A stretch of DNA of 64,000 bases. It comes from a virus (Duplodnaviria; Heunggongvirae; Uroviricota; Caudoviricetes). Of this stretch, positions 2 to 10,143 are shown in pieces; the first letter of the stretch is position 1, and every line of letters begins with the position of its first letter. The position numbers and the translations under genes were made by a program. The notes below the pieces were generated by a model. The model saw nothing but the letters and a program-made list of their open reading frames with translations. It made no database searches and had not been told where the DNA came from. The DNA lies in IMG/VR virus record IMGVR_UViG_3300025713_000004; one strand, 5' to 3'.

Positions 2-136
2 GAATGGTTAAAAACAATGCCATATATTGTTAAATATTGTTTTGGTATATATTTTAATACAGAAAATGGTCAAAAACTAGGTGGTGTTTTAGTTTTTAGT
101 AATGATTATACAGAAAATACTGGTGTTAATAACTAA
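2..136 (+). CDS. 3' end of an upstream gene (partial, open from the window edge to TAA at 134-136); hypothetical protein
   Basis: Frame 2 is open from the first base to the stop at 134-136 (...GGVLVFSNDYTENTGVNN*). Its 5' end lies outside the window. The IS607-like element begins right after it. Confidence 0.3.
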   Translation, partial: EWLKTMPYIVKYCFGIYFNTENGQKLGGVLVFSNDYTENTGVNN

Positions 137-2090: not shown

Positions 2091-3299
2091 ATGGAATTTG
2101 ATACTGTTTGGGATAAATATGGATTTACAAATAAAATTTTATTATTAAGCAGGGGTGTTTGTTTATGGTGGACACCAAAAAATACAGCATCTTTTTTTAT
2201 TTCTAGGGTTTGTAAATGGTTAAAAAATAATACAAAATATAGAATAATAACAGCAACTGTTGACCCAGCAGCAGGTGAAATCGGAACAATTTATCAATCA
2301 TTAAATTGGTTATATGTTGGTGTTATGTCTGGTAATTATTCCAATAATAAAGAAACAAAAAGATTTTCAGTATTAATTGATGGTAAATTAAGATATAGTA
2401 GATGGGTTAGAAATAAATTGGGTACGATGAAAAAAAATGTTATTTTAAAACACTATCCCAATGCAATATTTTTACCACAATATAGAAAACATAGATATTT
2501 TTATTTTATAGACACACCAAGAAATAATAAAAAACATAAAACATCTATAAATCATTTAATATTACCATATCCTAAAAGAAATGATGAAATTATTGGCGTT
2601 ATTTATAAAATAAAAAACAAAATAAACAACAAATTATATATTGGACAAACAATTCGTTCAATAAATGAAAAAATATTAGAATATAAAAATGGTTTGGGTA
2701 ATGATTATATTAATAATGCATTCAATAAGTATGGTTGGGATAATTTTGAATTTACAATAATTGATACGGCAAAAACAATTCAAGAACTAAACAATAAAGA
2801 AATTAAATATATTAGTGATTATAAATCAAACCAAAAAGAATTTGGTTATAATATTGAAGGTGGTGGTAAAAATATAATACCAACAAAAGAAACTTTAGAT
2901 AAAATGTCTATTTCTCATTTAGGTATTAAACAATCTAAAGAATGGATTAATAAAAGAATTTCAAAAGCAGGTAGTAATGATGCAAAAAAATACGGTAGAA
3001 AAAAAACAAAGCAAGATAAATTAATTTTAAGTAAAAATTCTTCTAAATATTGGTTAGGTAAAAACCATACAGAAGAAACTAAACAAAAAATTAGTAAAAC
3101 AAAAAAACAAATTGGATTGTCTGAAAAACAAAAAGAAATAATTTGCAAAAAGGTATTTAAAGTTAATTTAAAAACTAATGAAATTATTGAATTTGAATCA
3201 ACAAAAAAGGCGAGTGTTTTTGAAAATGTTAATCAATCCACAATATCAAGATGGTGTAAAAATGAAAAAAGAGTAAATGGTTATTTATGGAAAAATTAA
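2091..3299 (+). CDS. GIY-YIG homing endonuclease with NUMOD3 / IENR1-like DNA-binding modules and an extra ~150-aa N-terminal domain of unknown function
   Basis: The central GIY-YIG core is GVIYKIKNKINNKLYIGQT...KYGWDNFEFTIID...NKEIKYI...FGYNIEGGG. C-terminal lysine-rich NUMOD3-like repeats (TKQKISKTKK, SEKQKEIICKK) and a terminal helix-turn-helix-like tail (NVNQSTISRWCKN) resemble I-TevI/Seg-type endonucleases. The N-terminal 150 aa (WWTPKN...RIITATVDPAAGEIGTIYQSLNWLYVG) is not part of a GIY-YIG fold I recognise. Confidence 0.7.
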   Translation: MEFDTVWDKYGFTNKILLLSRGVCLWWTPKNTASFFISRVCKWLKNNTKYRIITATVDPAAGEIGTIYQSLNWLYVGVMSGNYSNNKETKRFSVLIDGKLRYSRWVRNKLGTMKKNVILKHYPNAIFLPQYRKHRYFYFIDTPRNNKKHKTSINHLILPYPKRNDEIIGVIYKIKNKINNKLYIGQTIRSINEKILEYKNGLGNDYINNAFNKYGWDNFEFTIIDTAKTIQELNNKEIKYISDYKSNQKEFGYNIEGGGKNIIPTKETLDKMSISHLGIKQSKEWINKRISKAGSNDAKKYGRKKTKQDKLILSKNSSKYWLGKNHTEETKQKISKTKKQIGLSEKQKEIICKKVFKVNLKTNEIIEFESTKKASVFENVNQSTISRWCKNEKRVNGYLWKN

Positions 3300-3874: not shown

Positions 3875-6800
3875 TTAAGAGATATCTGTCCAATTTCTAT
3901 CAAAGATTAATTCATTTTTTGCTCTTGTATATGCAACATATTCTAAATTTTTTTCTTGTAAAAATTCCCAATTTTTTGTTGTTTTCATTGGTAATAAATC
4001 TGGTCTTATTATAAAGACCCTATTTGCTTCAAGACCCTTTATTTTATGTATTGTACTTAAGCAAATTCCTTGAATTTCATCACTAAAAATTAAACCAATT
4101 TTATTTTTTAAATCAACAATACTATTTGATAATTTTGCTAAAAAAAGTAATGTTGTTACTTTATCTTCTAATGTAACATAACCACTATGTTCATTTGGGT
4201 TTAAAATACCTTCCTTTTTTAATTCTTTTCTATATTTAATTAATTCTCTATCCCAAAAAAGAATTAAATTGTCAATAGATTTAATATCACCAATTAATTC
4301 AATTAACTGAACACCAATATCAGAACCTTTCACAATTGCTTTTTTTTCTTGTTCTAAAAATTCAAAAAATAATTTAATTAATGGTATTGTTGTTCTACAT
4401 AAAACAAAATCACCACTTTCTGCTTCTTTTAAAACATTACCATCCCTTACAATACCATCAGGTGCATTGGGTAGTGCTTTTATATCAGGTACAATTTCTT
4501 GTGCTTTTTTTATTACATTTTTTGAACATCTGAATGACGTTGATAATGGTAGTGTTTTAGTATTTGGGAATTTACTAAACCATTCAAACGCTTTTTCATC
4601 TGCTGCATTAAATCCATATATACAATTATGTGTTAATATATTATCAGCAACATATGTTTCGTATTTATCAATTTCTAAAGAATAAACTAAACCAGAATAT
4701 TTTTCATATTTTAATTCATATATTTTTTGAATGTTGTGCAAATTTGCATTTAAACTGCAAATTTGCATTAAATCTGGAATAATATTAATTGCATATATTT
4801 CTAAAAAATTTTGATTATAATCCATATTCCAATTAGAATTCCATATCGGGTAGTTTGAATTTTTATTAAAATCATTAAATATTTTATCTTTATTTGCTAA
4901 ATAATAATTAGCATCTTTATATGCATAATACAAAGAATAGTACGATTTTAAAATCCAAATTTTATTAACATCACTTTTATTCTTAAAAATTTTAAAAAAA
5001 TCAATCTCATTTCTTATTGTGAATATACGTATGTGTTGAGTTTCATCCATCAATTCAAACAAACACAATACAAATTGTAATTGTTTTGTTTTTTTTATTT
5101 TAACCAAACATTTATGTTCTGGTGTATATTTAGATTCACATCCTCTTGAAATTATTTTTATTAAATTTCCATTATAATACCTACAACCAATATTGTTAAT
5201 TTTACTTTTAATAAAGGAATTACTTTTTCTATCGTAAGAAATAATTAAATCACCAACATTTAAATTTTCAATATCCTTTTCTGTATTATCATTCATTAAT
5301 ATTTTTGTTCCTTTAGGTTGACATTGATAATAATCACCAACAGATATTAATCTACCTATATATTTACCAGTAGTTTTATCTTTTTTTATTAATTTTTCTA
5401 CAATTTTTATTTGACAACGATTTAAATCTTGAACTTCATCAATAAAAATATAATCTTGAGGAAACATCCAAATACTACTATCTATTGCTGGTAAATATAT
5501 CATATCAATAAAATCATAATTTTTTCTATCAATTGTTGATTCTTCTAATATTTTTAATATTCTTTTAATATCTTTATTTTCTTTAATTGGTATATTATAT
5601 TTTTCAGCAATATTTGGAATAAATTCTGAATTTGTTGTTAATGTTAATCTACATAAATTAACCATTTTTTTTATATTATTTAAATATAAAGAAATATCAT
5701 CGTTATCATCAAATTCATCGTTTAATTTCCAATTTTTTGATTTTGATTGTATTATTTTATCAATTTTAAATTCATCGAATTGTATTTTATCACCATATTT
5801 TCTTTTAATTGCAGACGTACCTAAACCATAAGTTGTATAACATCTAACATATTCGGGTAATTTTGTTTTTAATTCTTCTTGTATGTGTTTATTGAACGCT
5901 AAAAACATAATAGATTTATCTTTAGGTAATAATTTTACTGCATCAACTATGGTTGAAGTATTGTGTGTGATTGTAAAATCACCCAATAAAAATCTACCAT
6001 TACCATTTAAAGTAAATCCAAAATATAAACCTTGTGATATAATATTTTCTTTTATTTTAAAAGAAAATAAATTATTGTAATTTGTTTTTTGTTTTCTTTT
6101 ATATACTAAAGGTAATATGCTAGTATTTCCATTAATGTCAATTTTCCAAAAAATGTTATTTCGAAAAGAAAATATCTTTTTCTCTTTATATATAAAACCT
6201 AAACTTTCACATAAAAATTTCAAATTAACTATTTTCCTTTTTGAAATTATTGTTAGTTTGGATGTCCTGTTTTTTTTATTATAATAAACATCAAAAATAC
6301 CCGCCAAGATTTTTTTTCTATTTTCAATAGAATTTATTAGATATTTGTCTGGTATTGATAAATGAATATTCTTTTTGTTTTTATCAATATTAAAAATAAT
6401 ACACTTTTGAAAATCATCGGAATAAAAACCCTTTTCATATTTTTTATTTAAACAAACACTTGTTTTATTTAAAACAAAAAAAGAATTATCTTTTAACTCC
6501 AACAATTTTTCTATTATTTTTCTTGTTAACCTAAAATCGACAAATAAAAATTGTTTTATATTATTTTTTAAATTATATCCTAACCATAATCCTAATAAAT
6601 ATGGATTTATTTCTGTTTTATTTTCTTGAAATTCAACAATGGATTTTTTTAATTTAATATTTTTTAAATAACCATTCCATTTTTTTGAATATTTGAGTTC
6701 ATTTAGTGGTGTATCTAACAAAATTTTAGAAATTTCATTGTAATGTGTAATTACATGAACATCATTACAAACCCAAGAATATCCTATTTCATTTTTTATT

Positions 6801-7045
6801 TTATATAGTTTACCATATCCAATATTTTTATTCAATACTTTACGAGGCGATGAATCATCACCCATTAAAAAATCACCAATTTTTATATCTTGAACCCTTT
6901 TTATTGTTCCATCATACATCAATACTGGTGTATCATATCCAAGACATTTACCTGTACCAGCATATGCTTTTATTAAAATATTTTCAGGTCTTTTTTTTGT
7001 AAATAAAAATATTCTTTCTTGTTCTTTTGTTGGTTTATTAATCAT
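3875..7045 (-). CDS. SF1 DNA helicase (UvrD/PcrA/Rep-like) precursor interrupted by two inteins
   Basis: The extein sequence reconstructs a UvrD-family helicase. Motif I is AYAGTGK|T (Walker A), split after Lys. Motif Ia is TSTIVDAV. Motif II is IFIDEVQDLN (DExx). Motif III is VGDYYQ|CIYGFNAAD (compare GDxxQxIYxFRGA), split before Cys. Each break is occupied by an intein-like insert that starts with Cys and ends with ...THN followed by T or C. Confidence 0.8.
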   Translation of the reverse strand: MINKPTKEQERIFLFTKKRPENILIKAYAGTGKCLGYDTPVLMYDGTIKRVQDIKIGDFLMGDDSSPRKVLNKNIGYGKLYKIKNEIGYSWVCNDVHVITHYNEISKILLDTPLNELKYSKKWNGYLKNIKLKKSIVEFQENKTEINPYLLGLWLGYNLKNNIKQFLFVDFRLTRKIIEKLLELKDNSFFVLNKTSVCLNKKYEKGFYSDDFQKCIIFNIDKNKKNIHLSIPDKYLINSIENRKKILAGIFDVYYNKKNRTSKLTIISKRKIVNLKFLCESLGFIYKEKKIFSFRNNIFWKIDINGNTSILPLVYKRKQKTNYNNLFSFKIKENIISQGLYFGFTLNGNGRFLLGDFTITHNTSTIVDAVKLLPKDKSIMFLAFNKHIQEELKTKLPEYVRCYTTYGLGTSAIKRKYGDKIQFDEFKIDKIIQSKSKNWKLNDEFDDNDDISLYLNNIKKMVNLCRLTLTTNSEFIPNIAEKYNIPIKENKDIKRILKILEESTIDRKNYDFIDMIYLPAIDSSIWMFPQDYIFIDEVQDLNRCQIKIVEKLIKKDKTTGKYIGRLISVGDYYQCQPKGTKILMNDNTEKDIENLNVGDLIISYDRKSNSFIKSKINNIGCRYYNGNLIKIISRGCESKYTPEHKCLVKIKKTKQLQFVLCLFELMDETQHIRIFTIRNEIDFFKIFKNKSDVNKIWILKSYYSLYYAYKDANYYLANKDKIFNDFNKNSNYPIWNSNWNMDYNQNFLEIYAINIIPDLMQICSLNANLHNIQKIYELKYEKYSGLVYSLEIDKYETYVADNILTHNCIYGFNAADEKAFEWFSKFPNTKTLPLSTSFRCSKNVIKKAQEIVPDIKALPNAPDGIVRDGNVLKEAESGDFVLCRTTIPLIKLFFEFLEQEKKAIVKGSDIGVQLIELIGDIKSIDNLILFWDRELIKYRKELKKEGILNPNEHSGYVTLEDKVTTLLFLAKLSNSIVDLKNKIGLIFSDEIQGICLSTIHKIKGLEANRVFIIRPDLLPMKTTKNWEFLQEKNLEYVAYTRAKNELIFDRNWTDIS
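4625..5323 (-). other. Intein 2 (233 aa) in helicase motif III
   Basis: The insert begins CQPKGTKILM and ends ADNILTHN, followed by the +1 Cys of CIYGFNAAD. Removing it restores the UvrD motif III GDYYQ-CIYGF. Cys-rich stretches (GCRYYNGN...GCESKYTPEHKC) suggest a small embedded nuclease or zinc module. Confidence 0.65.
5960..6946 (-). other. Intein 1 (329 aa) in the helicase P-loop, carrying a LAGLIDADG homing endonuclease
   Basis: The insert starts CLGYDTPVLM (intein block A: Cys, four residues, Thr, any residue, a hydrophobic) and ends FTITHN immediately before the extein Thr that completes GTGKT. It contains two LAGLIDADG-type motifs (PYLLGLWLGYN, which is PI-SceI-like LLGLWIGDG, and KILAGIFDVYYN). 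Confidence 0.75.
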
Positions 7046-9539: not shown

Positions 9540-10143
9540 TTTTATTTTTTATAAATCTTCTCCAAATAAATGAATAAAATGGTTGCCAATCGTTAAACTC
9601 AACAATACAAATCTCACCATTTTTTAATGTTTTATTTTCTTTATCATCACAATATTTATATTTTTCAACATCATTCCAATATATTCTATAAAAATCATCA
9701 TCCGTTTCAAAAGAAAGCGAATGATTTAATTTTTCAATATGATTAAAATTTTTTTGAATAAAATTATCTCTACAATCTATTGCAAATAAACTATTAAATG
9801 TTGGTGATGATTTAATAAATAACGAAAAATTATTACCGTAATCTTTTCTTGCTATTAAATTTAGTGCCTTCCAATATGTTCTAGGTAATTCATAATCCCA
9901 TTCTTTTTGTGTTGTGGCATATTCATATTCAATTTTACATATCAATTTCTTTTTTTTATCACCACTAATTTGTATTAATATAATATCGTTTTTATTGTAT
10001 TGATTTTCACATTGAATTTCAAAAAAAATACCACATTTAACAAAAAAAAGTGGCATGTTTTTATTCAAATAATGACACATTATAAATTCATTTTGATGAT
10101 TAATTTTATAATATTCATCAACCGCATTATAATTTTTCCCCAT
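9529..10143 (-). CDS. hypothetical protein
   Basis: A 204-aa ORF on the same strand as the thyA/dut block. Confidence 0.4.
   Translation of the reverse strand: MGKNYNAVDEYYKINHQNEFIMCHYLNKNMPLFFVKCGIFFEIQCENQYNKNDIILIQISGDKKKKLICKIEYEYATTQKEWDYELPRTYWKALNLIARKDYGNNFSLFIKSSPTFNSLFAIDCRDNFIQKNFNHIEKLNHSLSFETDDDFYRIYWNDVEKYKYCDDKENKTLKNGEICIVEFNDWQPFYSFIWRRFIKNKIKL

Follow-up and report, generated by a model that had tools for sequence, protein, structure and literature searches.

A phage UvrD-like helicase gene with two predicted class 1 inteins, in the P-loop and in motif III, whose nuclease domains appear to have decayed

PI-SceI, the intein of yeast VMA1, combines a Hint domain of the Hom_end_hint type with an NxxH block B (NATH, within CNATH), a C-terminal end of the form ...FLL..x..THN and a two-motif LAGLIDADG layout. 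Inteins at the GxGK/T point of the P-loop (a slash marks a splice junction throughout) are carried, with intact endonuclease motifs, by the 'DNA helicase' of Jerseyvirus Salmonella phages and by the D10-like helicase of Bacteroides phage BS162P1, where the junctions read GSGK/C...THN/T. At motif III, the 'intein-containing UvrD-like helicase' of Bacillus phages SPO1 (gp34.33) and CampHawk (GenBank; PMC3868849) harbors an intein with the junctions GDDDQ/CQPAG...LVTHN/SMYSF. For DnaB, a pair of inteins within a single helicase ATPase core, at sites a and b and with one member in the P-loop, has been described in a study that also lists UvrD among the intein-bearing bacterial helicases (Novikova et al. 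2016, PMC4760082). Mini-inteins and inteins with a decaying endonuclease, which belong to the Goddard-Burt homing cycle, keep up their splicing domain as the nuclease degenerates, and nine decaying-endonuclease cases were found in a survey of actinobacteriophages (bioRxiv 10.1101/2025.01.02.630785). All of these systems have points in common with a single gene located at positions 3875-7045, minus strand, of a 64,000-nucleotide stretch (the window) of the Caudoviricetes record IMGVR_UViG_3300025713_000004. This gene is likely to encode the precursor of a 494-amino-acid (aa) helicase from which two class 1 inteins splice, the nuclease domains of both having decayed and the inteins being now immobile and vertically inherited.

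The precursor was recovered in the open reading frame (ORF) survey of the window as a single ORF of 1056 aa plus stop, and at the local base composition of ~21% G+C (GC) the chance probability of a stop-free run of 1056 codons is ~10^-52. Junction 1 reads ...ILIKAYAGTGK/CLGYDTPVL...GDFTITHN/TSTIVDAV... and junction 2 reads ...RLISVGDYYQ/CQPKGTKIL...ADNILTHN/CIYGFNAADE.... The parts of the gene are the following, in the order of translation, with the basis of each assignment in brackets.

3875..7045 (-): precursor ORF, UvrD-like superfamily 1 (SF1) helicase with two predicted inteins (ORF, Pfam).
6947..7045 (-): N-extein, aa 1-33, up to the Walker A half-site AYAGTGK (85-91% identity to homologues).
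5960..6946 (-): predicted intein 1, aa 34-362, 329 aa, PI-SceI/VMA-type class 1, at GxGK/T of the P-loop (Pfam Hom_end_hint, same-site relatives).
6611..6946 (-): N-terminal splicing region of intein 1; block A at 6920-6946 is CLGYDTPVL, block B at 6746-6769 is CNDVHVIT (52-62% identity to intact relatives, no gaps).
6071..6610 (-): apparently degenerate LAGLIDADG endonuclease domain, with LLGLWLGYN (6572-6598) and ILAGIFDVYY (6281-6310) (alignment; no Pfam endonuclease match).
5960..6070 (-): intein 1 C-terminal splicing region, blocks F/G GFTLNGNGRFLLGDFTITHN, with the +1 nucleophile Thr363 (alignment, motifs).
5324..5959 (-): middle extein, aa 363-574, from TSTIV... through motif II FIDEVQD (5426-5446) and up to VGDYYQ, the half-site of motif III (motifs, Pfam, alignment).
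4625..5323 (-): predicted intein 2, aa 575-807, 233 aa, class 1, SPO1 gp34.33 helicase-intein family, at GDxxQ/x of motif III (Pfam, same-site relatives).
5090..5323 (-): N-terminal splicing region of intein 2; block A at 5297-5323 is CQPKGTKIL, block B at 5108-5128 is YTPEHKC (alignment, motifs).
4808..5089 (-): apparent eroded relic (~94 aa) of the ~150-aa central GIY-YIG-like domain of the intein-2 family (alignment; 10/23 conserved positions kept).
4625..4807 (-): intein 2 C-terminal splicing region, blocks F/G VYSLEIDKYETYVADNILTHN, with the +1 nucleophile Cys808 (12/12 conserved positions kept).
3878..4624 (-): C-extein, aa 808-1056, from CIYGFNAADE... to motif VI VAYTRAK (3917-3937) (UvrD_C and UvrD_C_2 Pfam matches).

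When aa 34-362 and aa 575-807 are removed in silico, a 494-aa UvrD-like helicase remains that holds Walker A, motif II (DExx), motif III (GDxxQxIYxF) and motif VI, and the score of the UvrD-helicase Pfam model rises from 36 bits (profile positions 47-250) in the unspliced protein to 77 bits (positions 13-268 of 271). This arrangement had been proposed in a first-pass annotation of the window, made by a model without database searches: a UvrD-like helicase with a 329-aa intein in GTGK/T of the P-loop and a 233-aa intein in GDYYQ/CIYGF of motif III, whose excision restores the helicase motifs. The ORF, the junctions and the Pfam intein matches all agree with it, down to the exact boundaries. Additionally, AAA_19 (43.8 bits), UvrD_C (43 bits) and UvrD_C_2 (32.4 bits) match the spliced extein, and all four models, UvrD-helicase included, score above their cutoffs. 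The extein missed the NCBIfam equivalog cutoffs for Rep (65 bits, cutoff 951) and PcrA (60 bits, cutoff 911), and it is a short, phage-specific UvrD-like SF1 helicase and no orthologue of bacterial UvrD, Rep or PcrA. The inteins have a GC of 0.205-0.209, equal to that of the exteins, which suggests that they have resided in this gene for a long time.

Both inteins of the window have the features of class 1, namely Cys1, the block B His, the His-Asn of blocks F/G followed by a nucleophile, a Hint profile match and in-frame insertion into a motif. Blocks B, F and G are present in each. The first-pass annotation was right that both start with Cys and end in HN before a Thr or Cys nucleophile (THN/T in intein 1 and THN/C in intein 2); its block A pattern (C-x4-T-x-I/L) is not that of intein 1, which has Val at the last position.

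The distribution of the inserts among related helicases is in agreement with their being inteins. The spliced extein aligned as a single block with 261 cultured-phage helicases, 94-98% of its length being covered, and 1733 homologues were recovered at E<=1e-10 in a large protein collection. Among the best 120 of these (73-79% identity), 113 are intein-free proteins of 490-498 aa, with an alignment that runs across both junctions at 99-100% coverage, so that related helicases do not retain the inserts as structural domains. An insert of ~340 aa at site 1 only was found in 6 of the 120, and one (P0035) has a 304-aa insert at site 2 only. Both inteins together were found in none of these 120 closest extein homologues. 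However, a search with the whole precursor recovered alleles with inteins at the same two sites and with intact nuclease domains, namely P0275 (1139 aa, 51% identity), P0129 and P0291 (1134 aa), P0294 and P0295; moreover, 3 of 81 representative motif III inteins are accompanied by a GxGK/C P-loop intein. The idea that the double-intein allele is peculiar to this phage was rejected on account of these relatives. Within the helicase family the double arrangement is therefore a minority state, yet a recurrent one, which qualifies the first-pass statement that double-intein helicases are uncommon in phages. Two further observations concern the same family. An alternative P-loop intein point, AG/C...HN/SGKT, is used in P0353 and P0374, and another type of insert, with LAGLIDADG_2 (PF03161), is found in 845-859-aa alleles (among P0322-P0348, P0305 and P0316); some alleles, of 1197-1211 aa, combine the LAGLIDADG_2 insert with the P-loop intein.

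The empty and occupied alleles also differ next to the motif III site. The residue that follows GDxxQ is Gly in 111/113 intein-free alleles and Cys or Ser, a nucleophile required for splicing, in every allele that bears a motif III intein; in the window this +1 residue is Cys808, encoded at 4622-4624. Intein gain at motif III is therefore accompanied by the change of a conserved helicase residue, which fits with homing in which the extein sequence next to the intein was co-converted.

Intein 1 was matched by Hom_end_hint with 54-67 bits (Pfam cutoff 32.1) and shares with PI-SceI the first three traits listed above, the two-motif LAGLIDADG layout being recognisable in it as relics. Its nucleophile is Cys34, its last residues (...FTITHN) precede Thr363, and its splicing residues are unchanged (Cys1, CNDVH, ...FLLGDFTITHN and the +1 Thr); the block B CNDVH is of the NxxH form, and CND[IV]H is found in all intact relatives. 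Six site-1 relatives with 340-aa inteins, P0002 and P0012 among them, have the same junctions (GAGK/CLG...FTITHN/T), intact PYLLGLWLGDG and LLAGIIDTDG motifs, and Pfam matches to Hom_end (PF05204) and LAGLIDADG_3 (PF14528). In the window the two motifs read PYLLGLWLGYN and ILAGIFDVYY, so that Tyr stands in both instead of the last acidic residue, a metal-binding position occupied by Asp (or Glu) in nearly all relatives. The equivalent positions in PI-SceI are the metal-binding catalytic residues D218 and D326, which are required for cleavage. Furthermore, no Pfam endonuclease model matched the window intein 1, even at E<=10.

Divergence is strongest in one part of intein 1. Against the intact relatives, its splicing parts show 52-62% identity without gaps and its endonuclease part 30-35% with 27 gapped positions, while among the intact relatives themselves conservation does not differ between the two kinds of part (70-81%). 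The nuclease region has thus diverged while the splicing regions were kept, which points to relaxed constraint on the nuclease only, and the LAGLIDADG domain appears to be a degenerate relic with no credible active endonuclease. A LAGLIDADG endonuclease had been announced for this intein at first pass; the domain is indeed recognisable, but as a relic that has lost both catalytic Asp residues, and the further statement that one motif is nearly identical to that of PI-SceI needs a small correction, since LLGLWLGYN agrees at 7/9 positions and the mismatches include the catalytic Asp. The Jerseyvirus and BS162P1 inteins share ~31% identity with intein 1 over its full length. What sets the window copy apart from these and from PI-SceI is Tyr for both catalytic Asp, several indels and the lack of a Pfam endonuclease match; in addition, its host is an SF1 UvrD-like helicase, whereas the PI-SceI-type examples reside in a V-ATPase or in a superfamily 2 (SF2) helicase. 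Intein 1 is accordingly a member of a widespread and already sampled family of P-loop-targeting LAGLIDADG inteins.

For intein 2, Intein_splicing gave 37.6-40.3 bits (Pfam cutoff 35.8) and the NCBIfam model intein_Cterm matched aa 787-808 with 19.7 bits (cutoff 15.6). The nucleophile is Cys575, the end ...NILTHN precedes Cys808, and block B is YTPEH, the Thr and His of which are family-invariant. In a word-indexed search, the P0035 intein was the only close full-length relative, and alignment showed the window intein to be ~70 aa shorter through several internal deletions. Over 39 aligned members of the family, the window copy keeps 27/28 highly conserved splicing-domain positions, including C1 and the Thr and His of block B, and D298, T302, H303 and N304 are invariant in all 39, this copy included. 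Only 10/23 conserved central positions are kept. Substitution and deletion have removed from the window copy the Tyr of strand 1, the RIG Gly, both Arg and Glu of R-x3-E and the Glu of helix 2 (the corresponding positions being C, a deleted Gly, F, S and A), as well as IPQ. Intein 2 thus retains an eroded trace of another nuclease-like domain, one that lacks an annotation; as in intein 1, the splicing shell is whole and the core is in ruins. That intein 2 might be no more than a mini-intein with a linker was considered and rejected, because its middle aligns to a conserved domain of the relatives.

The motif III helicase intein itself is an already known element, that of SPO1 and CampHawk. The SPO1/CampHawk intein has in common with the intein-2 family its site, a start of the form CQPxGT, a YTPNH block B and the central motifs YLM...FRVG...R...ADKAWVL...ES..S, and tblastn from the intact relative P0035 reached it over full length at ~28% identity. 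The window intein differs in its size (233 aa versus 275-305 aa in the SPO1/CampHawk relatives), in the loss of most conserved residues of the central domain and in having Cys, not Ser, at +1. SPO1 gp34.33 (L007 628-3564), the best-known cultured member, has R-x3-Q for R-x3-E and IAT for IPQ, and its own central domain may be partly degenerate, a point of weight when a member is picked for experimental work.

A profile of the central ~160 aa of intact intein-2 members was run against 1.84 billion cluster representatives and matched 1622 proteins, 1176 of them at E<1e-10. The best matches examined were UvrD-like helicases of 750-1200 aa in which the domain is placed between the Intein_splicing match's two halves, and 81 of the best 150 representatives have clean junctions, GDxxQ/CQPxGT...ADGILTHN/[CS]IY.F. 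The family was also found in Streptococcus suis prophages (H58-H72), where the inteins reside in genes annotated as adenine-specific DNA methyltransferase; tblastn covered 100% of the query there, the central domain included, at ~29% identity. This family is thus not confined to helicases.

The nature of the central domain was approached by sequence and by structure. Pfam at E<=10, applied to 6 and to 38 intein-2 members, gave no consistent match to it (one member matched Tox-URI2 at E=0.13); PHROGs and profile searches against PDB sequences left it unmatched, and hhalign of the domain against I-TevI and against the window's own GIY-YIG domain returned probabilities below 1%. The whole P0035 intein, modelled by AlphaFold2 from a 39-sequence alignment with a mean confidence score (pLDDT) of 95, returned in Foldseek PI-SceI domain I and other inteins, that is, Hint-domain matches only, for which reason the central domain was modelled alone. 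Nine GIY-YIG proteins were then among the top fifteen structure matches of the intact central domain; they are given with their structure entry and score, the first six being the top six matches.

PD-T4-3 GIY-YIG endonuclease, 9u75, 5.4
UvrC N-terminal domain, 1ycz, 4.8
HIGLE (SLX1 homologue), 7wme, 4.7
SLX1, 6seh, 4.6
I-TevI catalytic domain, 1ln0, 4.6
SLX1, 7cq2, 4.5
T4 EndoII, 2wsh, 4.1
EF2693, 1ywl, 3.6
R.Eco29kI, 3mx4, 3.6

In the consensus of 38 intein-2 members, Y11, [FYW]19-R-I-G22, R38-x3-E42 and E63 are invariant or nearly so. When correspondences were assigned by position on secondary-structure elements, the strand-1 Tyr fell at Y6 of I-TevI, the strand-2 [F/Y/W]-R-I-G at Y17-x-G19, the helix-1 R-x3-E at R27-x3-H31 and the invariant helix-2 Glu at E75. 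The Tyr, aromatic-x-Gly, Arg and Glu set conserved in GIY-YIG enzymes is therefore present in the family consensus, and not in the window copy. The ~150-aa central domain, intact in P0035, P0275, P0129 and SPO1 gp34.33, could be a divergent GIY-YIG homing endonuclease of these inteins, an assignment that we put forward tentatively, as possible but somewhat short of probable. It would then be an in-frame GIY-YIG endonuclease within a contiguous intein, a combination stated by Dassa et al. (2009) to be 'not known to be present in inteins', GIY-YIG genes being free-standing between split-intein halves, and the 2025 actinobacteriophage survey (bioRxiv 10.1101/2025.01.02.630785) observed LAGLIDADG, HNH, VSR-like and EndoVII-like architectures, with GIY-YIG absent from those observed and mentioned in passing only. 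No statement on the identity of the middle domain of the motif III helicase intein was found in the searchable literature. Any real novelty potential lies only in the central domain of the intein-2 family, which is intact in the relatives and not in the window.

Taken together, these data allow a history of the locus to be proposed. After translation of the precursor, each intein, lying inside a catalytic motif, would excise by the canonical class 1 route in four steps: first Cys1 undergoes an N-S acyl shift, then trans-esterification moves the chain to the +1 Thr or Cys, next the terminal Asn cyclises, and an acyl rearrangement comes last. Ligation would rebuild GTGK-T (Walker A) and GDYYQ-C-IYGF (motif III) and release the active helicase. 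The inteins would have entered empty alleles by nuclease-driven homing, intein 1 with a two-motif LAGLIDADG enzyme and intein 2 with a GIY-YIG-like module, and both nuclease domains would then have decayed while the splicing domains were maintained, a late stage of the Goddard-Burt cycle. A nuclease encoded in an alternative frame or antisense, as in actinobacteriophage inteins, was looked for, and only ORFs of 50-72 aa without a Pfam match were found. Some points weigh against this proposal. The +1 Thr and the NxxH block B of intein 1 are less common than Cys/Ser and TxxH, yet both are conserved in all intact intein-1 relatives. The LAGLIDADG domain with Tyr for Asp could still bind DNA or serve another role. 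Selection on the relic domains is beyond measurement, since every recovered copy of the allele has the same sequence. Lastly, what the sequences show is where the inteins begin and end, to what they and the exteins are homologous, that splicing residues are kept and nuclease residues lost, and that alleles with no, one and both inteins exist; splicing itself, nuclease inactivity and past homing we infer from this.

Other explanations were weighed against the same observations. The stronger form of the first-pass reading, with intein 1 spreading at present by means of a LAGLIDADG homing endonuclease that is still active, would agree with its two recognisable motifs at the expected spacing and with its sporadic distribution among close relatives, but both metal-binding Asp are Tyr where the relatives have GDG and DTDG, the Hom_end and LAGLIDADG models that match the relatives fail at E<=10, and the domain has low identity to theirs (30-35%) and indels; the PI-SceI equivalents D218 and D326 are needed for cleavage. 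We regard an active enzyme as quite improbable. The decay of both nuclease domains could also be taken to mean that the helicase is dead, its inteins having lost the ability to splice and the ORF being either a pseudogene in decay or a gene whose role does not depend on helicase activity. This is very improbable, since the frame is open for 1056 codons at ~21% GC, both inteins have retained every splicing residue that is invariant in the family, every helicase motif is intact in exteins that share 72-91% identity with functional-looking homologues (the intact intein-1 relatives), and the same allele was found in many independent assemblies.

The relic domains might instead have been kept for a new role, such as stabilisation of the Hint fold, DNA binding or conditional splicing that gates the helicase during infection. 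Neither has been trimmed to a mini-intein although catalytic residues have clearly been lost, the clustering of inteins in ATPase motifs has been argued to reflect regulation (PMC4760082), and there is a published case in which removal of the endonuclease domain inactivated splicing (PMC7765530). However, indels and low conservation are typical of neutral decay, and intein-free alleles dominate among close relatives, so that such a role seems unlikely, if less so than the two explanations considered above. As for the inserts being permanent structural domains of an unusual helicase, never excised, they split GxGK/T and GDxxQ/x, which would destroy ATP binding; Hint domains were identified by Pfam in both window inteins and by structure search in an intact intein-2 relative; and homologues lack the inserts at the precise junctions. 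This reading is effectively refuted already and scarcely conceivable. Splicing inteins with decayed nucleases thus remain the likely explanation of the locus.

As regards the phage itself, the neighbouring genes include those of a prohead protease and of a major capsid protein of the gp23 type, which indicates that the host genome is that of a large, uncultured T4-like phage. The identical 1056-aa protein was found on contigs of up to 220 kb in 68 blocks of the collection (many metagenomes), and megablast of the locus against cultured phages gave no match. The closest cultured phage by its major capsid protein is Flavobacterium phage 'immuto', at ~31% identity, and the phage appears to be only distantly related to cultured ones. 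The first-pass annotation had described this end of the window as a hotspot of selfish elements, and domain matches corroborate an IS607-type unit and a GIY-YIG ORF nearby.

189-797: serine recombinase ORF (domain match).
808-2076: TnpB ORF, OrfB_IS605 plus Cas12f-like TNB (domain match).
2091-3299: ORF with Mom-family, GIY-YIG and NUMOD3 matches (domain match).

The IS607-type unit spans 1977 bp (128-2104) and splits the Mom/GIY-YIG gene, remnants of which lie at window positions 2-127 and 2091-3299. In five contigs of ~99.9-100% identity the Mom/GIY-YIG/NUMOD3 gene is intact as a 485-aa ORF (L001 13747-15204 (-)), reading ...SNDYTENTGV/WDKYGFTNK... where the slash marks the point of interruption. 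A gene that is intact in five near-identical contigs and interrupted in the window points to very recent transposition. L005 carries a different recombinase/TnpB pair elsewhere (L005 2500-4766). The fusion of a Mom-family (DNA-modification type) domain with a GIY-YIG nuclease and NUMOD3 is an unusual combination, located directly beside the gp23-type major capsid gene. Additionally, L001, otherwise ~99.9% identical, has an extra block of ~5.8 kb (L001 1403-7248) where window positions 9789-9797 are contiguous; this block, a variable island of the phage, has genes for an N6/N4 DNA methyltransferase (851 aa) and an SNF2/ResIII helicase (946 aa).

Compared with DnaB, the window helicase is SF1 and not superfamily 4 (SF4), its second site is motif III, it is a phage example and both of its nuclease domains are decayed. 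Compared with the decaying-endonuclease cases and mini-inteins, two unrelated inteins of one gene are both found here at one intermediate stage, halfway from loss of the nuclease to the mini-intein, and neither has reached mini-intein size. Since intact, single and empty alleles are available for comparison, the locus would help to date how the homing cycle proceeds, step by step, in uncultured phages. The correct annotation for the gene would be a 494-aa helicase plus two inteins, neither of which should be counted as an active homing endonuclease. The intein-2 family is abundant, is found in SPO1-like and genetically tractable Bacillus phages and targets motif III of UvrD-like helicases. If its central domain is indeed a working GIY-YIG nuclease, it would represent a fourth type of in-frame nuclease in inteins and a new source of site-specific nucleases, and would support the idea that free-standing GIY-YIG genes between split-intein halves become fused into inteins.

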